Shown: positions 7,483 through 24,766, numbered from the stretch's first letter. The stretch is DNA of 55,881 nucleotides from an uncultured bacterium (GCA_937928585.1 CALEZK010000602.1:1-55881), one strand, 5' to 3'. Notes: a model not told the origin generated them from the letters alone. Translations and numbers: made by a program.

Positions 7483-8389
7483 GAGCCTCTAACAAAAGTT
7501 TTGCAAGAAGTTAAAGCATATACAGACACAACCGAGGGCTAGGAACGCCTTGTGTATATCGACGCGACGTTCGTATCGCACGCGGAGTCTACAGAATTGG
7601 TGAAGTCAGCTAATCGTGCGCTCCACGACCCATCGGACGGTTCCAAGGCCTGTGCCGTGCTTGGTGTTGCGATGGGCGATTAACGCGCCGATCCCTCGTT
7701 CGCTCAGTTTGGTTTCATGAGGCGCCGAGTGGTAGGCACGATCCGCAAAGAGATAGCCCGGCCGCTGTTTGGGTCGCCCTCGCTTGCCTCGCACGGGTGG
7801 AATGGCGTCAACGAGCGGGATAAGTTGAGTTACGTCGTGGCGGTTTGCGCCGGTTACGGTGAAGGCAAGCGGAATGCCCTGCCCGTCGGTGACGATATGA
7901 TGTTTGGTGCCGAGTTTGCGGCGGTCCGTCGGATTCGGGCCCGTTTGCTGCCCCCAAAAACCGCGCGGACGCTCGAGGAGTCGACTACGACTCGGGACCA
8001 ATCGAGTTGGTCCGACTTGTGGAGTTCTGCCAGCATCGTTTCGTATACGCGCTGCCACACGCCCAACTCCTGCCACTTGGCCAAACGGCGCCAGCAGGTC
8101 ATTCCAGACCCGCATCCCATTTCTTGCGGAAGGTATTCCCACGGAATTCCCGTGCGCAAGACAAACAGAATTCCTGTAAGCGCACCGCGATTGGGTACGG
8201 CAGGCCGGCCATTGCTCTTGGGCTCTTTGTCCGGCGGCAAAAGGGGTTCGATGAGCGTCCACAGTTCTTCGGGCAGTATCTCGCGAGCCATATGCTCCTC
8301 CATGCAGCCCGTTGCCGTTAATCCGGACACCCTTGCGCAAAATATATATCGGAACTGTTTTCATTAACTTTAGCTTTTGTTAGAGGCTC
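7483..8389 (-). mobile_element. IS5-family (IS427/IS1031-like) insertion sequence, 907 bp
   Basis: It has perfect 16-bp terminal inverted repeats (GAGCCTCTAACAAAAG at 7483-7498, complement at 8374-8389). TTA flanks both ends (7480-7482 and 8390-8392). It encodes a two-frame DDE transposase. Confidence 0.8.
7489..8291 (-). pseudogene. IS5-family transposase (orfA/orfB joined by a -1 frameshift) carrying an in-frame TGA
   Basis: orfA reads MAREILPEELWTLIEPLLPP...SVRAVFGG. It continues in the -1 frame as QQTGPNPTDRRKLGTKHH..., with the shift at a T5G5 run (plus strand CCCCCAAAAA, 7951-7960). TGA at 7606-7608 replaces the conserved Trp of ERT(F/I)(A/S)WL. The frame then continues as LHQFCRLRVRYERRVDIHKAFLALGC... 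to TAG 7489-7491, inside the IR. Confidence 0.75.
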
Positions 8390-14200: not shown

Positions 14201-14439
14201 GCAGTTGGGCTCCACGGGGTTCATGTTCGGGGCACGCGCGTGCCCTTGCAGGTATTGTAGGGTCGGGGTGGCGCGGGTGTCAACCGTTCCAGCCCGTATG
14301 CGCACTCATTTCAAGCACGGTGGCTTGTCAACCGATCCGTAACAGGGGCGTTGAAGGTTTGTACCATAGGCGGAGCGGGTCTGTTATTAGACTGCGCAAA
14401 TCGTCCTTGGTTTTCGCGGCATGGCCGGCAGCTTAACGG

Positions 14440-14468
14440 TTGACCACCCATCACCCAGTTGGTATACT
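14440..14468 (+). promoter_or_regulatory. near-consensus sigma-70 promoter TTGACC-N17-TATACT
   Basis: TTGACC at 14440-14445, an exact 17-nt spacer, then TATACT at 14463-14468. It is about 80 nt upstream of the first small peptide ORF. Confidence 0.5.
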
Positions 14469-14549
14469 TCGGGTTACGCGGTGGCAGCATGAACGCGCGC
14501 AGTGCTCTCCAGTGGGGGAATCGCTTGACGCGCTCGGGAGAAATCTACA

Positions 14550-14747
14550 GTGAAGCACCTTCGCACGATCTCGCGCACGCCCCAGCTTGCCGAGGACAGC
14601 TCGACAGACCTTTCGTTCATTCTTTCCGTCTTGAGCCTGATGCTGGGACTGTTTTCGACTTTCCTGGGGTCGTTCACGACGGCGTTTTCCGGTGTGCTTG
14701 AGGCCATCGGCGCTTACAACGAAGTGAAGAATCCGTCCGGTACATAG
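14550..14747 (+). CDS. small peptide P1 (65 aa), hydrophobic Gly/Ser/Thr-rich; candidate precursor peptide or small membrane protein
   Basis: GTG start with GGGAG 9 nt upstream. Translation is MKHLRTISRTPQLAEDSSTDL-SFILSVLSLMLGLFSTFLGSFTTAFSGVLEAIGAYNEVKNPSGT. The N-terminus is paralogous to P2. Confidence 0.5.
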   Translation: MKHLRTISRTPQLAEDSSTDLSFILSVLSLMLGLFSTFLGSFTTAFSGVLEAIGAYNEVKNPSGT

Positions 14748-14819
14748 TAGACAATTGCTGAGGGCATCCGTCGGGGTGCCCGCCAAGAATAGAGTGGAAG
14801 CAACGCAGGAGATTGCGAA

Positions 14820-14969
14820 ATGAAGCATATCCGCCAGATTTCCGTGACGCGCGCCAAAAAGGCGGACGCGCTGGCCGACTTGTACAACACCATCTGGCAG
14901 GCCTGGCTCGACTTCGTGTATACGAAGAAGAACCAGATTTTCGTCGTTCCCGATACGAGCACGGACTAG
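14820..14969 (+). CDS. small peptide P2 (49 aa), Trp/Tyr-rich and amphipathic; candidate precursor peptide (below ORF-track cutoff)
   Basis: ATG 14820 with AGGAG 9 nt upstream. Translation is MKHIRQISVTRAKKADALADL-YNTIWQAWLDFVYTKKNQIFVVPDTSTD, ending at TAG 14967-14969. Confidence 0.5.
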   Translation: MKHIRQISVTRAKKADALADLYNTIWQAWLDFVYTKKNQIFVVPDTSTD

Positions 14970-15178
14970 CCCGCCCGTTTTCGAGCTTTCGGCGTCGGGG
15001 CTTTTGCTACATGCAACCGTCCCGGCGCTATTTTTTTGCCGGACTTTGCCGAGGGGGGGGACTTGCAGCGTGCATTCCGGATCGCCAGCGTTTACCATTA
15101 AGGGAACCTGTGCCGGGCAGGCCTATTCGTATTGATTGCGGGTGATTTGGCCAACCGGCCGCATGCAGCACAATCCAC

Positions 15179-15739
15179 ATGATTTCAGGAAAATACACCA
15201 TCATTCGTTCGGCTGAACCGGACGACGCGTACGCCATGTGGCGGCTCTATGATCCGAGCCGTCCGCGCTCGTTTTTGTTGGGGCCCTCGCGCGAGGTGAT
15301 GATTCCAACGCAGGACGAGATGCGCGAGATGCTGGCGCGGCGCGATGTAATTCAAGGTTCGTTTTTTGCGATCGAAGATCGCGCGGGCGAAGTGTTGGGG
15401 TGTTGCGTGCTGCGGGGCGCGAAAGCGGAATCGGATTTTGCGGAAGTGGTCGTCGCGCTAACGGACGAGAGCAGTTACGATTCGCCGGTCGCGGATGAAG
15501 TGTATGAGTTTCTCAAGAAGCTTGGGTTTGTCGACAAGAAACTAAACAAGCTTGTTGCGCACTGCCTGTGCAATGAAACGGGTTATCGCGCGTTTCTTGT
15601 GCGGCACGGTTTCACGAGCGATGGCATTCAGCGGGAAATGGTGTATACCAAGGGCCGTTACTTCGATCTCGAGTCGCTCTCATTGTTTAACAACGCGCGG
15701 ACAGGAGGGGGCAATGGATCTGCTGTTGCGGCGCCCTGA
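15179..15739 (+). CDS. GNAT-family N-acetyltransferase (1 of 3 in tandem)
   Basis: RimJ/RimL-like layout: YTIRSAEPDDAYAMWRLY, then a central beta-strand/helix region, then C-terminal GFTSDGIQREMVYTKGRYFDL. Confidence 0.7.
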   Translation: MISGKYTIIRSAEPDDAYAMWRLYDPSRPRSFLLGPSREVMIPTQDEMREMLARRDVIQGSFFAIEDRAGEVLGCCVLRGAKAESDFAEVVVALTDESSYDSPVADEVYEFLKKLGFVDKKLNKLVAHCLCNETGYRAFLVRHGFTSDGIQREMVYTKGRYFDLESLSLFNNARTGGGNGSAVAAP

Positions 15740-16262
15740 ACGCCCGGACCTGGACATCATTGTTGATTGGATGGGCGATCCCGAGTTTCGTCACTTTCTG
15801 TTTGGCGATAGCGAGCAGCGGCCGCAGCACATGGGCCAGCAGATGCTTGGCGTGATGAGCAGCGCCCTTGCGCTGCCGATGTCGAGCGCGGGCAACCTGC
15901 TGCTCGAGGATCCGGCGCTGGGGACTGTGGGTCTCGTCATGCTGCACGAAGTAAGCTGGCGCAATCGCTCTTGTTTTCTGGGGCTTTATCTTGCGCCGAC
16001 GCATCGCACGCCCGAGATCATCTCGCGCGCGATCGAGACGGTGTTTGCCTATTGTTTCGAGGAGTTGAATTTGCATCGGGCCGCGATTCGCGTGGACGCG
16101 ACCCAGCCTGATTACGGCGTGGCGTGCGAACGCATTGGCGCGGTCCGCGAGTTTGTTTTTCCTGGCCACGCGATGCGCGATGGCAAACCGGTGGATGTAA
16201 TTGGTTTCGGGGTGTTGCGCGTTGACTTTGACGCGCGGCGCGCGGCTACGGCGGGAGCATAG
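15714..16262 (+). CDS. GNAT-family N-acetyltransferase (2 of 3)
   Basis: I place the start at MDLLLRRPERPDLDIIVDWMGDPEFRHFLFGD (ATG 15714, GGAGG upstream). It overlaps GNAT-1 by 26 nt. It shares the SWRNRSC motif with GNAT-3. Confidence 0.75.
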   Translation: MDLLLRRPERPDLDIIVDWMGDPEFRHFLFGDSEQRPQHMGQQMLGVMSSALALPMSSAGNLLLEDPALGTVGLVMLHEVSWRNRSCFLGLYLAPTHRTPEIISRAIETVFAYCFEELNLHRAAIRVDATQPDYGVACERIGAVREFVFPGHAMRDGKPVDVIGFGVLRVDFDARRAATAGA

Positions 16263-16263
16263 C

Positions 16264-16893
16264 ATGGCCCTTAAATCCAGCGTTTTCATTCGCCGCGCGG
16301 ACCGGGAGGATCTTGAGACGATCGTATCGTGGATGGAAGATCCCGCATTTCAACGCTTCCTCTACGGAGACCCCGCGCGATCGCCGAAGCAAATTCGGGA
16401 ACAAATCGTCGGCATGCTGGGCCGATCCGCGGCGCGCACGTTGCCCGGCGGCATTTACTTCATGGCGGACTCGACCAAGTACGGCCCGGTGGGGTTGTTC
16501 AGCGTCGTCAATATGAGCTGGCGCAATCGATCGTGCAATATCGATTCGTACATTTGCGAAGACCGGCGCAACGGCATGTTCAGCACGGTGGCGTTTTATC
16601 GCGTGCTGGAATACTGCTTCCACGTGTTGAACATGAACCGCATCAACATTTACATCTACGGCTTCAATACGCGCTCCTGGCGCATATTTGAATTGACCGG
16701 GGCGAAACAGGAGCTGGTGTTGCGCGAGCACGTCGCGCGGGACGGCGAACTGTACGAGATGTACGGCTACGGCCTCATTCGGCCCGAGTGGGACAAGTTT
16801 CGCGAGTTTTTCCTGAAGCGCTTCAAGGGAATCGATCTGCAAACCATGATCGCGGATCTGAAGAGCGAGGAAGCGGCGAAGGTGTCCACCTGA
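16264..16893 (+). CDS. GNAT-family N-acetyltransferase (3 of 3)
   Basis: ATG 16264 is 1 nt after the TAG of GNAT-2. The sequence IRRADREDLETIVSWMEDPAFQRFLYGD...SWRNRSC...GAKQELVLREHVARDGELYEMYGYG is a clear paralogue of GNAT-2. Confidence 0.8.
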   Translation: MALKSSVFIRRADREDLETIVSWMEDPAFQRFLYGDPARSPKQIREQIVGMLGRSAARTLPGGIYFMADSTKYGPVGLFSVVNMSWRNRSCNIDSYICEDRRNGMFSTVAFYRVLEYCFHVLNMNRINIYIYGFNTRSWRIFELTGAKQELVLREHVARDGELYEMYGYGLIRPEWDKFREFFLKRFKGIDLQTMIADLKSEEAAKVST

Positions 16894-17627
16894 TGGCCGA
16901 GCAATTACTTTGGGGCCTGCTCGCGACACACATCGTGTATTCGCTGTTCGCGAATAGCAGATCGAAAAGCGAACACCCGCAGGGCCTTGCCCGCACCATA
17001 CACGTGCTGTTGCAGGCGCCGCTGCTTTGGGTGTCGGTTTACATCGGCATTCATGCGGGGGAGTTTTCGCGCGAGCTTGTGTCGCCGGTATACATCGTGG
17101 CGGGGTTGCTTGCGGGGCACCTCATATTCGGGTTCTCAATTTTGTTGACGCATCTTTCCTGGCGTGACGCCTGGGCGCATTTTTTTGATTTCGGCCCGTT
17201 ATGGAACTTCACGATGGACAGCCCGGTCGTATTGACGCGCTTCTTCGGCGTGGCGTTTGCGGAGGAACTGATCTGGCGCGTCGCGGCCCAGACGCTCGCG
17301 ATAGAATTCCTTTCGCAATACATGAGCAACACGGCGGCGGCGGCGCTTGGTATCGTATTGATTGCGGCGGGATTTGTCGTCGTACACAAGCATTTCTTTG
17401 AAAATACTTGGTACATATCGGTTGAGTTTGTGGCGTTTGCGCTGTTGATTGGCGCGCTTTATTACTGGACGGGCAGCTTCATCCTCGTAATTATCATTCA
17501 CGCGTTGCGCGATATCGAGATTGCATATCTTGAGTATCTCGGCAAAGTGGAAGAACTCGGTAGCGAAGCGGAAGCCGCGCTTGCCATCGAGCAGGCCTAT
17601 CGTCCGCGGCGAATGGAGAATACATGA
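16893..17627 (+). CDS. CPBP-family (CAAX/Abi-type) intramembrane glutamic protease
   Basis: The start overlaps the GNAT-3 stop (TGATG). It is a polytopic membrane protein with the motifs FAEELIWRVAAQ (EExxxR), VVHKHF and IIIHALRD. Confidence 0.8.
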   Translation: MAEQLLWGLLATHIVYSLFANSRSKSEHPQGLARTIHVLLQAPLLWVSVYIGIHAGEFSRELVSPVYIVAGLLAGHLIFGFSILLTHLSWRDAWAHFFDFGPLWNFTMDSPVVLTRFFGVAFAEELIWRVAAQTLAIEFLSQYMSNTAAAALGIVLIAAGFVVVHKHFFENTWYISVEFVAFALLIGALYYWTGSFILVIIIHALRDIEIAYLEYLGKVEELGSEAEAALAIEQAYRPRRMENT

Positions 17628-18664
17628 GCGCCACCGCCGCAGTGCAGCTCTGCGATGTAGATAAGATATTTCATACGCGCCATTTCTTCACGAAGCACGA
17701 AGAAACGGGCAAGCGCCGCCTTTATTACAAGAAAACGGTGCACGCGGTTGACCATATCTCGCTGGAGATCAAGCCCGGCGAGATTCTTGGTTTGCTCGGC
17801 CGAAATGGCGCGGGAAAAACGACGACGGTAAAGATGATCTCGGGATTGGTCAAGCCGAATTCCGGGACGGTTTACGTTGACGGCATGGATGTCGAGAAGA
17901 AGCGCTTGAAGGTGCTGCGCAAGATAGGCGTGGTGCTGGAAGGGACGCGCACGTGCGTTTGGCCGCTGACGCCGCTAGAAAACCTTTCCTACTTTGGAAA
18001 TCTGCGCGATGTGAAGGGCCCTGTGTTGAAAGAGCGGAGCGCGGAACTGCTGGAGTTCATCGGTCTGAAGGACAAGATGAACGTGGAGGTGCGCAAGCTT
18101 TCGCGCGGCCAGAAGCAGCGCCTGGCCATTTGTATCGCGCTGATTACGGATCCGCCGGTGTTGCTGCTGGACGAGCCGACCACGGGCCTTGATGTGCAGA
18201 GCAGCCGCGCGATCAAGGACAAGCTGATCGAGATGACGCGTGAACGCGGCAAGTGCGTGTTGGTGACGACGCACGACATGAACACCGCGCAGGAAGTTTG
18301 CGACCGCGTGGCGATCGTTCACGATGGGAAACTGGCGGCGTGCAAGCCGACGAACGAGTTGATCGGCCTGTTTTCCGATCAGACGTATCACCTGCACGTT
18401 GATCGTATTCCGGATCTTGCCGGCGTACGCGCGGTGCCGGGCGTGCTGGCCTCTGACGCGCTGGAAGACGAGGGCACTGGGCCGCGCGTTTCGGTTCAGT
18501 TTTGCGCGGACGAGTCGGAGCGTTCTTCCGCGCTTTATTCGGTGATGGAACGCCTTCGAGGCAGCGGCGTCACGCTGCGCTCGATTAACCACGCGCAACA
18601 AACGCTGGAAGACGTGTTTCTTCGCATTACGGAAAAGACCAGCAAGAACGGGGAGAAGGTTTAG
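17624..18664 (+). CDS. ABC transporter ATP-binding protein (ABC-2/DrrA-like)
   Basis: ATGA overlap with the CPBP gene. Walker A is GRNGAGKTT, the signature is LSRGQKQRL, and Walker B is LLLDEPTTGLD. A C-terminal accessory domain is present. Confidence 0.9.
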   Translation: MSATAAVQLCDVDKIFHTRHFFTKHEETGKRRLYYKKTVHAVDHISLEIKPGEILGLLGRNGAGKTTTVKMISGLVKPNSGTVYVDGMDVEKKRLKVLRKIGVVLEGTRTCVWPLTPLENLSYFGNLRDVKGPVLKERSAELLEFIGLKDKMNVEVRKLSRGQKQRLAICIALITDPPVLLLDEPTTGLDVQSSRAIKDKLIEMTRERGKCVLVTTHDMNTAQEVCDRVAIVHDGKLAACKPTNELIGLFSDQTYHLHVDRIPDLAGVRAVPGVLASDALEDEGTGPRVSVQFCADESERSSALYSVMERLRGSGVTLRSINHAQQTLEDVFLRITEKTSKNGEKV

Positions 18665-18666
18665 TT

Positions 18667-19605
18667 ATGGGCTTCTTCCTGGTACTGAAGGCCGAGGTCG
18701 TCCGTTCGATGATTGTGACGCGACGATACTGGTTTGCTACGGTGACGGCGCTGTTTGTGGCGTGCGTTATGTTTTCTGCCTTTATCAATATTTTTCTGTC
18801 CGGGATTGTGGCCGGCGCCGATATGGCAGGCGTTGCCGTGGACCGGGCACTCGGATTGGTCATCGGTATTTTTGCGTTCAGCATGGTTGGCATGTTCAGC
18901 ACGGGTCTTGCAGGCATGGCGCGCAGCGGCGAGCTCGAACAGGTGTATATGAGCCCGCATGGACTCATCACCAACTTCATGGCGCGGTCTACCGTTGCAA
19001 CGGTCTTGAGCATCATAACGTGGACGATACTGTTGATGTTTGTGTCTTCCGCGTTTTCGGCGGAGACAGACGGAGCCAAGGCCGACGAGCAAGTTCAAAC
19101 CGCGCATGCCGATGCGGCGGCTGTTGCGGAAGCTACGCCGACGGAGTCCGCGCCCGGAGCTGCAGGGGAAGATTCGGGAAAGAAAATGAAGGCGGACGGG
19201 AAAATTCACGCCGACCCCTTGCCTATGGTGGTGTTGTTCCTGCTTACGTTTTTCAGCATGACCGGATTCGGCTTCATGATTGGCGGGCTTGTGCTCGTGT
19301 TCAAACAGATAGGCCAGGTTGCGGTGATATTGCGCATGATCATGATGGGCGTTGCGTGGAAAGCGAGTGATGCGCTTTACGATCAACATTGGCTTTTGCA
19401 ATGGGTCGCGCACGCGGTGCCTGTGACGGACGCGGCGATTTGCCTGAAACTGGTTCTGCTGCAAAACTACGGCACGCATATTTTCACGCACCCGTCATTC
19501 CTGTTTCTGCTTGCGAGCGTTGCCATCTGGACGCCGATCGGTTTGATCTGCTTTAAGGCGATGGAGAATTGGGCGCGTAGCAAAGGGACCCTGGGAGCGT
19601 TTTGA
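18667..19605 (+). CDS. ABC-2-type transporter permease
   Basis: It starts 2 nt after the ATPase stop. It has multiple TM segments and an Ala/Asp/Glu-rich loop of about 54 aa in the middle. Confidence 0.7.
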   Translation: MGFFLVLKAEVVRSMIVTRRYWFATVTALFVACVMFSAFINIFLSGIVAGADMAGVAVDRALGLVIGIFAFSMVGMFSTGLAGMARSGELEQVYMSPHGLITNFMARSTVATVLSIITWTILLMFVSSAFSAETDGAKADEQVQTAHADAAAVAEATPTESAPGAAGEDSGKKMKADGKIHADPLPMVVLFLLTFFSMTGFGFMIGGLVLVFKQIGQVAVILRMIMMGVAWKASDALYDQHWLLQWVAHAVPVTDAAICLKLVLLQNYGTHIFTHPSFLFLLASVAIWTPIGLICFKAMENWARSKGTLGAF

Positions 19606-21527
19606 TGAGTCGCGACGCGCTACATCGGTTTGTGGAGAGCGAACGGCGATTTGCCGTCGACCCGGAGACCTGTTTTTGCTTCGAGTGCGACGAGATCTCG
19701 TGGGATGTGCTTGAGTACTATCCGCACGCGTCGGTGAACCGCATCTATCACCTGCTTGGCGAACGCTACAGCGTGAAAGAGCTTGAGGAAGTCATCGGCG
19801 AGCTTGAGTGGCTGCGTTCGACGCGCGCGATTCTCCCCGCGCCGAAAAAGGACGACGTTCAGAAGGAAATCCAATTCGAGCGTGGCCTGAAGCGCGTTGC
19901 TATTTCGCTGCCGCGCGAGGGCACGGAAGCTGCCGTAAAGAAAAAAGGCTGGTTCAGCCAGGGCGCGACCGTGATGTCGAGTTCGGCGCGCGATATTGGC
20001 CATGACGCGATTGCTTTGTTGTTGGGCCGTGCGGGCGAGCAAAAGGAACTCGCCATCGAGTTTGTAGAAGAAGGGTTCATTCATAATCCTGAACTGGTGG
20101 CTGATTTGTGCGCACACGCGATGAAGTGCGGCAAGCTGGCAGGCAAGAAACTGACGGCTTCGGTTTTGATCCAGAACATCGAAGTGTCGAAAGTGCCGGC
20201 CGCGCTGGATGGGCACACCGTGAGCGCCGCCCTCGAGTTTACCGAAACCGCGGACATGCTGGCGCTGTTGCGTCCCTTTGCAAAAATCGCTGGTGAAGCA
20301 TTTGCGCGCCTCGTCAAGATTGTGCAGCCGGACGCGCCGGGCGTGCATGGTCGCATCATCGTGCGGCCGAACCATCCGAATTTCGCGGGCGTTGTCGAGG
20401 AGCTTGAGAAACAAGGCTTCACAACAATCGATTTGGATTTGGACGGCGCATATGTGGCGAATCCCTCATTGAATCCAAGTGAAATGCTCGATGGCCTTCG
20501 CGCCACCGCCGTCTATTACGCGAAGCGGCTGCTTCAGCATAAGTACTATCGCGTCGATCCCATCGCGCCGCTTTTCTATCGGATCTACGATGGGTCGCCT
20601 TCCCGGCGCACGGATCCGGCGGGCACAAATGAATTGGCAGTCGGCGGCGACGGCGGCGTGTATCCGTCGCGGCGCTTGATGGGCGTTGAGGCCTACAAAC
20701 TTGGCACCGTGATGGGTGGCGAGATTGATGAGCGCATCCGCGCGCGGTTCGACGAAGTCGGCGCTTCAACCACGGGGGTATGCCGCCGATGCTGGGCGCG
20801 CAACTTGTGCGGCGGCGGCAATACGGCAGTGCACCACGCGTTGACTGGATCGCACCGCACGCCAAGCGAACCTTGGTGTGAGGCGCAGCGTGCGTGGATG
20901 ATGTCCGCGGTGAGCGCGTTTAATCTGTTGTCGTCACATGGCGTGAATTTCACGCGGGTATATCGCACCTTGACGCGGACGACGCGTCCGTCTCTTCTAA
21001 CCGTGGTGCGCGCGATGTTCCGGATGACAATTGGCATGCGGCCGATTGAAGAAACAGACGCGGAGATGCTGGCCAATTGGGAGAATTGGAACCCTGCTTC
21101 GTATTTCCTGTTCACCGAAGGGGGCATCATGGTCACGACGAAGTATGATCGTGAAATGGACGCGCTGCATCCTTCCGGCGGTGAGCAGGAGATGATTCTG
21201 ATCAAAAAGGACGGCACGGCGATTGGGTTGATTAAGCTGCGGCCCGATCGCGTTCCCGGCGCCGCTCAGGGCTGGCTGTACCTGCATAACGAGGCCGACT
21301 ACGCGTCTGACGAGGTGCGCAAAGGTTTCCGCGCTCTGCTGCGGGAAGCAGGCGGCCAACAGTCTATCCGGAGGTTGACCCTTCCCGCGTCTGCCCAGGA
21401 AGTTGGGTTGCAGAAGTTTCTGGAATCAATTGGTTTTGCGAAAGAGGGCACGCTGCGCGAGGCACTCTTTGCGCACGACACCTATCATGACGTGCACCTG
21501 TATGGTATCGCGACCGACAAGTTGTAG
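19605..21527 (+). CDS. radical-SAM/SPASM maturase-like protein without the CX3CX2C motif, fused to a C-terminal GNAT domain
   Basis: ATG 19605 overlaps the permease stop (TGATG). The region PAGTNELAVGGDGGVYPSRRL...YKLGTV...CRRCWARNLCGGGN...PWCE is colinear with the SPASM/twitch region of anSME-type enzymes. The central part looks like a degenerate radical-SAM barrel (ELAIEFVEEGFIHNPELV in place of F.GGEPLL). The last 170 aa or so are RimJ-like GNAT (IEETDAEMLANW...GFAKEGTLREALF). Confidence 0.65.
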   Translation: MSRDALHRFVESERRFAVDPETCFCFECDEISWDVLEYYPHASVNRIYHLLGERYSVKELEEVIGELEWLRSTRAILPAPKKDDVQKEIQFERGLKRVAISLPREGTEAAVKKKGWFSQGATVMSSSARDIGHDAIALLLGRAGEQKELAIEFVEEGFIHNPELVADLCAHAMKCGKLAGKKLTASVLIQNIEVSKVPAALDGHTVSAALEFTETADMLALLRPFAKIAGEAFARLVKIVQPDAPGVHGRIIVRPNHPNFAGVVEELEKQGFTTIDLDLDGAYVANPSLNPSEMLDGLRATAVYYAKRLLQHKYYRVDPIAPLFYRIYDGSPSRRTDPAGTNELAVGGDGGVYPSRRLMGVEAYKLGTVMGGEIDERIRARFDEVGASTTGVCRRCWARNLCGGGNTAVHHALTGSHRTPSEPWCEAQRAWMMSAVSAFNLLSSHGVNFTRVYRTLTRTTRPSLLTVVRAMFRMTIGMRPIEETDAEMLANWENWNPASYFLFTEGGIMVTTKYDREMDALHPSGGEQEMILIKKDGTAIGLIKLRPDRVPGAAQGWLYLHNEADYASDEVRKGFRALLREAGGQQSIRRLTLPASAQEVGLQKFLESIGFAKEGTLREALFAHDTYHDVHLYGIATDKL

Positions 21528-21569: not shown

Positions 21570-21863
21570 TTAGTCGAGATAGGCGCTTACGCGCGAGGCG
21601 ACGAGTTCGACAACGGACTGCAGTTTGTACGCACCTTCCTGGATTTGCTTTCGGGCCTGCTCGACGCGCGACTTGCGAATTTCGTCGGCGCTGCTTGCCG
21701 CGAGTCTCGCGGCGTCGGCTGCATCCTGGGCTTCGCTGCTAAAGGAAACGTTGTCTGTTGAGTCCGCAACGGTTCGGGACTCGCCACGCTTCGCTGAGCG
21801 CTCTCCAGCCGGAGTCGGCCCCGATGGGGCAGATAAACCGACTATGCCTTGTATACCAGCCAT
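21570..21863 (-). CDS. flgM: anti-sigma-28 factor FlgM
   Basis: 97 aa. The N-terminal half looks disordered. The C-terminal part (IRKSRVEQARKQIQEGAYKLQSVVELVASRV) is typical of FlgM. GGGAGAG lies upstream of the ATG, and a sigma-28 promoter lies upstream of that. Confidence 0.7.
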   Translation of the reverse strand: MAGIQGIVGLSAPSGPTPAGERSAKRGESRTVADSTDNVSFSSEAQDAADAARLAASSADEIRKSRVEQARKQIQEGAYKLQSVVELVASRVSAYLD

Positions 21864-23988: not shown

Positions 23989-24160
23989 GGTTTGAACGCG
24001 CCGGGATGCCTTTCGGCGCAACCGTTTGACTGGCATGAGCTTGCTTCGTATACTCCGTAGGCCTTTTCGCATTTCATTCGCGCCGACGGTTACGGAGCCT
24101 GTATGCATGGGGCCGCGTAACTTTCGGCGCATGTTGTATATGCGACGGAGAGTATCGCGC

Positions 24161-24766
24161 ATGCTTGAAGGAAACGTGCTAGTTCTGAATAAGTCGTGGG
24201 CGGCGGTTCACATCGCTTCGGCCCGGCGTGCGTTTACGCTTCTATACATTGGCGCGGCCCGAGCCGTGCACCCGCATAATTTCTCGCTTCATACGTTCGA
24301 GGATTGGGTGAGGCTTTCTCAGAACGGCATGGGAGGGCAGTACATTCACACGACGAATCTGCGTATTCGCGTGCCGGAAGTAATTCTCCTGTCCCTCTTC
24401 AATGGGTTTATCCACCACGAAGTTCGTTTTTCGCGGCAAAGCATTTTTGAGCGGGACAAGGGCACGTGCCAGTACTGCGGCAAGCATTTTTCGCGTGGGC
24501 AACTGACAATCGATCACGTGATGCCACAATCGCGCGGGGGAGGGGATTCCTGGGAGAATCTCGTGTTGGCGTGCCTTCACTGCAACGTGAAAAAAGGGAA
24601 TCGCACGCCGGACGAGGCGAATATGCCGCTGCTGAAGCGGCCATTCAAGCCGGCGTGGATGCCGCACTTCGGCGCGCGCGTTCCGCAGGACCAGCTCGCG
24701 GTGTGGAAGAAGTTTGTGGATACCTCGCACTGGAGCGCGCCATCGCGCGAAACTGCCGCTTCCTAA
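24161..24766 (+). CDS. HNH endonuclease
   Basis: I place the start at MLEGNVLVLNKSW. The HNH core reads CQYCGKHFSRGQLTIDHVMPQSRGGGDSWENLVLACLHCNVKKGNRTP. Confidence 0.8.
   Translation: MLEGNVLVLNKSWAAVHIASARRAFTLLYIGAARAVHPHNFSLHTFEDWVRLSQNGMGGQYIHTTNLRIRVPEVILLSLFNGFIHHEVRFSRQSIFERDKGTCQYCGKHFSRGQLTIDHVMPQSRGGGDSWENLVLACLHCNVKKGNRTPDEANMPLLKRPFKPAWMPHFGARVPQDQLAVWKKFVDTSHWSAPSRETAAS

Follow-up and report, generated by a model that had tools for sequence, protein, structure and literature searches.

We analysed a stretch of 55,881 nucleotides from an uncultured bacterium (GCA_937928585.1, CALEZK010000602.1:1-55881; hereafter the window, at its full length) in which two adjacent small open reading frames (ORFs), P1 and P2, begin alike and continue with unrelated sequences. 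P1 and P2 are genuine genes. We consider it likely, from sequence comparison, that they encode precursors of a leader-guided modification and export system that is specific to Hydrogenedentota, derived from SCIFF/ranthipeptide systems and built on an acylating pseudo-radical S-adenosylmethionine (rSAM) scaffold; in this SCIFF-derived system, acyl transfer probably replaced radical chemistry. The system is a new variant within the leader-guided maturation typical of peptides that are made by the ribosome and modified after translation (RiPPs), and a literature search found no description of it. Compared with an earlier reading of the same DNA, made without databases (the sequence-only reading), three points are new: the system's descent from SCIFF, the missing rSAM motifs and a conserved lysine in the peptides.

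Two small genes with a common N-terminus

The sequence-only reading listed ten identities within the first 21 residues of P1 and P2 (M1, K2, H3, R5, I7, S8, T10, D16, D20 and L21) and complete divergence beyond them. The ten identities are exact, and the remainders, of 44 and 28 residues, share two identities over 28 ungapped positions. This N-terminal resemblance is far beyond chance. The window contains 507 ORFs with 40 aa or more; among the 128,271 pairs of their N-terminal 21-mers, just one reached the level of 10/21, and that pair must be P1 and P2. When P2 residues 2-21 were shuffled 200,000 times, nine or more matches out of 20 never arose, and the motif KH[LIVM]R.[LIV]S does not occur again in the six-frame translation of the window. 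At the DNA level, the two genes are identical at 32 of the 63 nucleotides that encode the leader, so the likeness is maintained at the protein level and does not reflect a recent duplication. BLASTP reported no alignment between P1 and P2, which we attribute to the shortness of the segment.

Each ORF is preceded by a Shine-Dalgarno sequence 6-10 nt upstream (GGGAGA, 8 nt upstream, for P1 and GGAG for P2). With relatives of the last gene of the downstream operon (40-89% identity) we fetched 36 genome loci, which carry L numbers here. Nearly all are labelled Candidatus Hydrogenedentota, and the others are a few metagenome-assembled genomes labelled Nitrospiraceae, Nitrospirales or FCB group. About 20 Candidatus Hydrogenedentota genomes have orthologues of P1 or P2, always ahead of the same operon, and in every locus that reaches far enough upstream, L018 excepted, the operon is preceded by one to five small ORFs that share this N-terminus. 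The eight P1 orthologues all start with GTG (window 14550, L002:5016, L003:435, L005:5028, L006:5039, L008:3400, L028:2405 and L035:5011). Their dN/dS relative to the window is 0.19-0.23 for five of the six that can be scored and 0.66 for the sixth (L028), with a median of 0.35 over unsaturated pairs; L002 is saturated at synonymous sites. A P2-class peptide is found in 20 of the 22 sources scanned (the window and 21 loci), always as the last peptide before the acetyltransferase gene GNAT1. P2 has a dN/dS of 0.09-0.25 against close orthologues (median 0.28, with synonymous sites near saturation). Both reading frames are thus conserved in related genomes and, by the synonymous to non-synonymous comparison that the sequence-only reading had proposed, under purifying selection, with dN/dS well below 1.

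GTG also starts the first peptides in L021, L022, L025, L026 and L029, and ATG starts all 20 P2-class peptides. The split between the two start codons may be a conserved setting of the ratio of the two peptides.

We also considered that the resemblance is fortuitous, that the region is a structured 5' untranslated region without translation, or that the true gene lies on the other strand. The failure of BLASTP to align P1 with P2 speaks for these explanations, as does an antisense ORF of 215 aa (14451-15098, - strand) that spans both peptide genes and the spacer. They are refuted by the pair count and the shuffles, by the dN/dS values and by a scan of the whole window with Rfam, in which no family matched. 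Compared across loci, this antisense frame is free of stops over anything between 101 and 253 aa and shifts frame, and it has no match in Pfam; we rejected it as a gene and regard it as an artefact of GC content, although such an ORF could mislead gene callers that rely on ORF length. The possibility that P1 is an ordinary membrane protein found elsewhere also finds no support, as every P1 orthologue lies within the operon in the fetched loci, to which this check was confined. Contrary to what had been expected from its size, P2 does not escape gene calling: an identical NCBI entry exists (hypothetical protein PLJ47_07065 [Candidatus Hydrogenedentes bacterium]), and P2 is represented by 20 database clusters. 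P1 is rarely called (6 clusters).

Leader, cores and a conserved lysine

The leader consensus of 43 non-redundant family peptides comprises M1, K2 (38 of 43), H3 (40), a hydrophobic residue at positions 4 and 7 (all 43 in both cases), R or K at position 5 (38), S or T at position 8 (all 43), P, R or K at position 11, and A14 (31). Of the 21-residue conserved leader initially proposed, the common N-terminus therefore stands, but the conserved part is limited to residues 1-8 plus A14. The leaders of P1 (MKHLRTIS) and P2 (MKHIRQIS) are of the MKHIK type that characterizes SCIFF precursors. The SCIFF precursor CteA, which was co-crystallised with its maturase CteB, starts MKHIKILNGSTLKDSLKKGGC, with the leader MKHIKILN. 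This leader binds as a β-strand against strand β3 of the RiPP recognition element (RRE) of CteB (PMC6231123). The proposal of a precursor-peptide family with a common leader gains from the downstream operon for maturation and export, the 640-aa protein of which, named as a binding partner in the sequence-only reading, contains an RRE homologous to that of CteB. The peptides consist of leader and core, and a maturase with an RRE, a protease and an exporter are encoded beside them, which is the generic layout of a RiPP locus.

The nearest catalytically intact relative of the 640-aa protein (P0192, in locus L040) is an rSAM/SPASM maturase encoded together with three peptides, an Rce1-like CPBP protease, an ABC ATPase and an ABC-2 permease. 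All three peptides start MKHIKLLN and have Cys-rich cores. This cassette, along with the likeness to CteA, indicates that the leader/RRE pair and the module of CPBP protease and ABC-2 transporter are ancestral. From this, Hydrogenedentota would seem to have changed to Cys-free cores and a new chemistry, with the rSAM function lost and GNATs added. The peptide link is demonstrated for the Hydrogenedentota clade and the intact outgroup L040 only.

P1 combines a cationic leader (MKHLRTIS..P..A) with a hydrophobic helix of 36 residues rich in Gly, Ser, Thr, Leu and Phe, a single lysine (Lys60) and the tail NPSGT. In P2, the leader is followed by an amphipathic Trp/Tyr core with the conserved sequence ADAxxDLYNxxWQAWLDFVYTKKN, which includes Lys37-Lys38, and by a variable acidic tail; the helix has a mean hydrophobicity of 0.25 and a hydrophobic moment (μH) of 0.48. 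P1 has no Gly-Gly motif and P2 no glycine at all. Both are cysteine-free, and cysteines (one or two each) occur in just 5 of the 45 family peptides. 

The cores of the family fall into 10 unrelated classes, each conserved among orthologues. Among P2 orthologues, identity is 68% in the leader (residues 1-8), 19% in the linker, 59% in the core and 25% in the tail; for P1 the corresponding values are 58%, 40%, 49% and 75%, with Lys60 invariant. Contrary to what had been claimed, the cores are thus not hypervariable: they differ between paralogue classes and are conserved within them, as seen in the P2 core (59%) versus its linker (19%). The peptide array consists of a near-universal P2 slot and a variable upstream slot, which holds P1 in the window. 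Several paralogous precursors per locus with one leader and unrelated cores are likewise found in Nif11/NHLP systems of the prochlorosin type. Unlike in those, the leader here has only 8-14 residues, the core classes are conserved and P2 is near-universal.

Across classes, the peptides have a common architecture. The leader is cationic, with a charge of +2 to +6 in its 12 residues, and leads into a hydrophobic or amphipathic helix. Lys and a polar residue come next (N in 25 peptides, E in 9, D in 4, others in the rest), and the tail is short (median 5 residues, range 1-17), variable and either polar or acidic. This K or KK directly after the helix is the only lysine past residue 16 in 41 of the 45 peptides of the 10 classes. 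The part that follows the leader is net negative in 36 of the 45.

The 640-aa protein and the proposed pathway

The last gene of the operon is listed as an ORF starting at TTG 19602. The sequence TGATG at the stop codon of the ABC-2 permease gene points to ATG 19605 instead; from this start the protein has 640 aa, the length of its database homologues, and its translation would be coupled to that of the permease. The protein comprises an RRE (residues ~7-75; window 19620-19826), a Cys-less barrel remnant (~95-335), a SPASM remnant (~340-445; 20619-20936) and a C-terminal GNAT domain (~475-641; 21024-21524). Its best NCBIfam matches are maturases of the ScfB type that act on SCIFF peptides, with scores well under the cutoffs (TIGR03974, 68 bits against a cutoff of 425), and the SPASM model TIGR04085 passes (32.7 bits, cutoff 27), with four of the seven Cys kept. 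The sole significant sequence relative in the PDB is CteB (5WGG, chain 5wgg_A; phmmer), which matches at residues 7-178 (the RRE and the first part of the barrel) and at residues 340-430 (the SPASM domain). CteB is also the top Foldseek match (E = 1.3e-17, target TM 0.67-0.69, about 480 columns) of an AlphaFold2 model of the protein (pLDDT 82, pTM 0.67). The 640-aa protein is therefore predicted to have the RRE, barrel and SPASM fold of CteB. The C-terminal domain of the model resembles amine N-acetyltransferases of the SpeG/RimL type.

The motifs required for radical chemistry are gone. The cluster-binding motif CxxxCxxC is absent from the window protein and from alignments of 19 and 33 homologues, and the segment expected to hold it is Cys-free, indel-rich and modelled with low confidence; the SAM-binding motif GGE is likewise absent from the window protein and the aligned homologues. 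We aligned the protein directly with its nearest relatives from an exhaustive profile search. The seven nearest outgroups (~450-490 aa) have CxxxCxxC, GGE and all seven SPASM Cys, and no GNAT domain. Two divergent members, P0185 and P0189, have lost CxxxCxxC and GGE, keep all seven SPASM Cys and have the GNAT domain. The Hydrogenedentota form has also lost both rSAM motifs and has the GNAT domain, with SPASM cysteines reduced to Cx2Cx5C and the final Cys; the two hairpin Cys are missing, as is the fourth one of Cx2Cx5Cx3C. Following the assignment for anSME, we take the four retained Cys to be the ligands of auxiliary cluster II (Aux II) and the lost ones to be those of auxiliary cluster I (Aux I).

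Strand β3 of the RRE carries an invariant CxCxxC (C24, C26 and C29; CFCFEC at 19671-19688, within ETCFCFECDE); the intact outgroups do not have it, and P0185 and P0189 have it in reduced form. A new metal site may lie here, on the surface that binds the leader, and, more speculatively, the near-invariant His3 of the leader could provide its fourth ligand. At 90% identity the family falls into 293 clusters, each of ~640 aa, which databases name only 'SPASM domain-containing protein' or 'GNAT family N-acetyltransferase'.

Several relatives differ in context. The L037 member of the family, which like the L039 member keeps both auxiliary-cluster Cys sets, is found with an operon (L037:4262-9923, GCA_004196275.1) of GNAT, GNAT, CPBP, ABC and ABC-2 genes, followed by a gene for an outer-membrane efflux protein (OEP). 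In L039 (1394-3247), the divergent SPASM-GNAT member is followed by glycosyltransferase and methyltransferase genes. A further CteB-like protein, P0231 (656 aa), lacks CxxxCxxC, has the full SPASM motif and ends in a segment resembling S24/S26 peptidases (GDSMLPLIKDGD), which suggests that dead rSAM proteins may have been reused as leader-binding scaffolds perhaps more than once.

The system shares with SCIFF/ranthipeptide systems (ScfA/CteA with the rSAM-SPASM maturase ScfB/CteB, PDB 5WGG) the leader start M-K-H-I-K-x-Φ, where Φ is hydrophobic, and the three-part maturase fold of RRE, barrel and SPASM, for which CteB is the best match in both sequence and fold; the intact relative in L040 has the peptide array, the CPBP protease and the ABC-2 transporter in common with it. 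SCIFF precursors, however, carry six Cys in a core of ~45 aa, whereas P1 and P2 have none, and six family peptides searched gave no match to the SCIFF precursor model TIGR03973. The SCIFF maturase is intact, while the 640-aa protein is without CxxxCxxC, GGE and the Aux I ligands, which makes thioether formation by it impossible. Also unlike SCIFF systems, the system described here has a fused GNAT domain, two to three extra GNAT genes and the invariant CxCxxC in the RRE strand. It thus appears SCIFF-derived by descent, yet without the Cys and the rSAM function that define SCIFF.

A second comparison concerns the chemistry. In selidamides (kamptornamide, phaeornamide and the nostolysamides), which are GNAT-lipidated RiPPs, the side chain of Lys or Orn at the core terminus is acylated in a leader-dependent manner (PMC8784127, PMC13647313), the reaction that we propose here. 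Primary metabolism supplies the acyl donor, and no acyl carrier protein (ACP) is encoded in the clusters (PMC8784127, PMC13647313). Selidamide precursors differ in having long NHLP or Nif11 leaders that end in Gly-Gly (PMC8784127), while the leaders here have no Pfam or NCBIfam match and no Gly-Gly, and selidamide systems differ further in their lanthionine or arginase co-modifications and in lacking an rSAM-like scaffold and a CPBP protease. The GNATs here look like SpeG/RimL-type enzymes and are likened to those of selidamides by the proposed chemistry only. The system may therefore work like a selidamide system in its chemistry but falls outside the selidamides as defined by their leaders.

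In the pathway that we propose, the leader would dock on the RRE of the 640-aa protein. This protein would no longer carry out radical chemistry and would instead serve as a docking scaffold, which brings the helical cores, anionic and free of Cys, within reach of its own GNAT domain and of the two to three stand-alone GNAT paralogues. These would N-acylate the peptide, and the most likely site is the one conserved Lys just past the helix. Acylation on Lys is favoured because primary amines are what SpeG-like enzymes acylate, and because selidamide GNATs act on Lys or Orn at the end of the core. The CPBP intramembrane protease would remove the cationic leader, the variable C-terminal tail or both, and the ABC-2 transporter would export the product. 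Candidate sites for a mass shift are Lys60 in P1 and Lys37 or Lys38 in P2.

Several observations weigh against this proposal. The canonical acetyl-CoA loop Q/RxxGxG/A is not conserved in any of the four GNAT domains, which makes the acyl donor, the catalytic paralogue and even catalytic competence uncertain, and no acyl-donor genes (ACP or ligase) were found in or near the operon. Searches of the peptides against NCBIfam and Pfam gave no match, even at E <= 10 for six family peptides, although HMMER filters may drop very weak peptide matches; with these models empty, the SCIFF link rests on the PDB sequences and the outgroup locus L040. No peptide with an MKH leader was found within about 8 kb of P0185 (L037/L038) or P0189 (L039), and L018 (3503-6487), a Hydrogenedentota locus, lacks GNAT1 and all leader peptides; its precursors must be encoded elsewhere or lost. 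The conserved Lys could serve in membrane anchoring or protease recognition and not as an acceptor. Finally, single-copy chromosomal conservation throughout a phylum is unusual for antibiotic RiPP clusters.

Two other explanations are, in our view, unlikely. The peptides could be housekeeping products that remain with the cell, either small membrane proteins or signals, which the CPBP protease processes and which serve envelope physiology as regulators or subunits and not as exported natural products; SCIFF, whose own role may be regulatory, would be similar. Phylum-wide conservation, above all of P2, a core chromosomal context (topA, smg, flgM and priA nearby) and a cationic N-terminus before a hydrophobic helix, in accordance with the positive-inside rule, would all fit. 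Such a role is compatible with modification and does not exclude it, however, and the ABC-2 exporter, the terminator-separated array and the one to five variable paralogues per locus resemble a cassette that forms a product; P2, being amphipathic, is moreover too little hydrophobic for a transmembrane helix. Marginally less probable still, in our view, is an unmodified pair of membrane-active peptides similar to class IIb bacteriocins, in which the shared N-terminus would be a signal for export or processing, the CPBP and ABC-2 proteins would confer immunity, and the GNATs would serve self-protection or be unrelated. As in class IIb bacteriocins, at least two small genes lie side by side and encode helical hydrophobic or amphipathic peptides, and a CPBP/Abi-type protein and an ABC-2 transporter are part of the locus; Abi/CPBP proteins are immunity factors for two-peptide bacteriocins of the plantaricin type. 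The non-canonical P-loops of the GNATs point in the same direction. Class IIb peptides, though, have double-glycine leaders and are cationic, while P1 and P2 have no such leader and the cores of the family are mostly anionic. This explanation also gives no role to four constrained GNAT domains or to the strictly co-conserved CteB homologue with its RRE, and the leader has a homologue for which binding to an RRE is known.

Within the acylation pathway proposed above, a more specific version is possible, to which we give little credence, though slightly more than to either of these alternatives. Here the pseudoenzyme would pass the helices to the GNATs, the Lys would be lipidated or acetylated, and the CAAX-family protease would trim the tail beside the acylated residue, giving anionic lipo-helical products. 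If true, this would be a bacterial analogue of the lipidate-then-clip processing of eukaryotic CAAX proteins, and the peptides would have a conserved role in the envelope or in signalling across an uncultivated phylum.

More generally, the system would offer a stepwise record of how a RiPP pathway changes its chemistry while retaining the hardware for substrate recognition. The series leads from intact rSAM relatives, through proteins with a newly gained GNAT domain and both auxiliary clusters but without the SAM cluster, to the Hydrogenedentota form with Aux II-type Cys only; the pair of leader and RRE would have persisted, along with the CPBP protease and the ABC-2 exporter, while acyl transfer replaced radical cross-linking. 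Genome mining by rSAM/SPASM rules or with profile hidden Markov models of known precursors would mis-file or miss the class, since its members are annotated just as 'SPASM domain-containing protein' and 'hypothetical protein'. The system is among very few small-peptide systems conserved throughout Hydrogenedentota, a lineage without cultured representatives.

Operon, transcription signals and neighbourhood

The genes downstream of P1 and P2 lie on the same strand and are tightly packed or overlapping (Table 1). Synteny is strict in the 36 loci, in the order peptides, GNAT1, optional GNAT2, GNAT3, CPBP, ABC, ABC-2 and SPASM-GNAT. All GNAT domains match Pfam above threshold. GNAT1 has a tblastn match in 22 of the 23 loci that reach far enough upstream and is missing in L018, where a stop-free stretch of ~994 aa, efflux-pump-like by eye only, lies directly before GNAT3. 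GNAT2 is found in the window and in L002, L003, L005, L006, L008, L028 and L035, and is absent elsewhere. It thus co-occurs with the P1-type peptide (eight of eight loci with the peptide, none of 14 without it), but as these loci all belong to one clade this is a correlation only and not evidence of specificity. The closest solved relatives of GNAT3 are primary-amine N-acetyltransferases of the SpeG/PaiA type (8fv0, E = 8.5e-10). In the CPBP protein, the translation contains all three family motifs, EExxxR (as AEELIWR), FxxxH (FVVVH) and HxxxN/D (HALRD).

Table 1 Coordinates of the peptide genes, the operon and nearby features in the window
Feature	Position	Strand	Remarks
Sigma-70-like promoter	14440-14468	+	TTGACC, 17 nt spacer, TG-TATACT; ~80 nt upstream of P1
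P1	14550-14747	+	GTG start, 65 aa, putative precursor peptide
P2	14820-14969	+	ATG start, 49 aa, putative precursor peptide
Hairpin and seven T	14991-15037	+	GC-rich, 11-bp outer stem and inner stem; between P2 and GNAT1
GNAT1	15179-15739	+	Acetyltransf_4/3
GNAT2	15714-16262	+	Acetyltransf_3; GNAT3 paralogue
GNAT3	16264-16893	+	Acetyltransf_3; most conserved GNAT
CPBP/Rce1-like intramembrane protease	16893-17627	+	PF02517, 1.4e-9, 38.5 bits (cutoff 22.4)
ABC transporter ATPase (DrrA-like)	17624-18664	+	
ABC-2 type permease	18667-19605	+	PF12698
640-aa scaffold-acyltransferase (predicted)	19605-21527	+	RRE, barrel remnant, SPASM remnant, GNAT
DDE transposase	7606-8364	-	about 6 kb upstream of the operon
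flgM (anti-sigma-28)	21570-21863	-	converges on the operon end
HNH endonuclease	24026-24766	+	2.5 kb downstream of the operon

The promoter ahead of P1 matches the consensus at 10 of 12 positions, with an extended -10 TG, and is the sole match on the + strand within 14250-15250; it is a consensus match only. A simple scan found no terminator in the region, as the inner stem made the scanner miss the hairpin after P2. Folding of the hairpin in the window gives a centroid of -26 kcal/mol with a modest z-score of -1.5. An equivalent hairpin with a T-run follows the last peptide by 10-35 nt in about 13 of 17 loci, and the form CCGGGRC...GYCCCGG occurs at a conserved position in L002, L006, L008, L011, L015, L017, L019, L021, L024, L025, L028 and L035. 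The hairpin is probably a leaky intrinsic terminator or attenuator that separates the peptide genes from the enzyme genes. A strong promoter with a leaky terminator after P2 would let peptide transcripts exceed enzyme transcripts, as is classic for precursor genes placed ahead of their enzyme genes.

A reading of the locus as a defence system was rejected; PADLOC gave just generic similarity to ABC ATPases. The flanks are housekeeping in character, with topA, smg/DUF494, flgM, HNH and priA genes.

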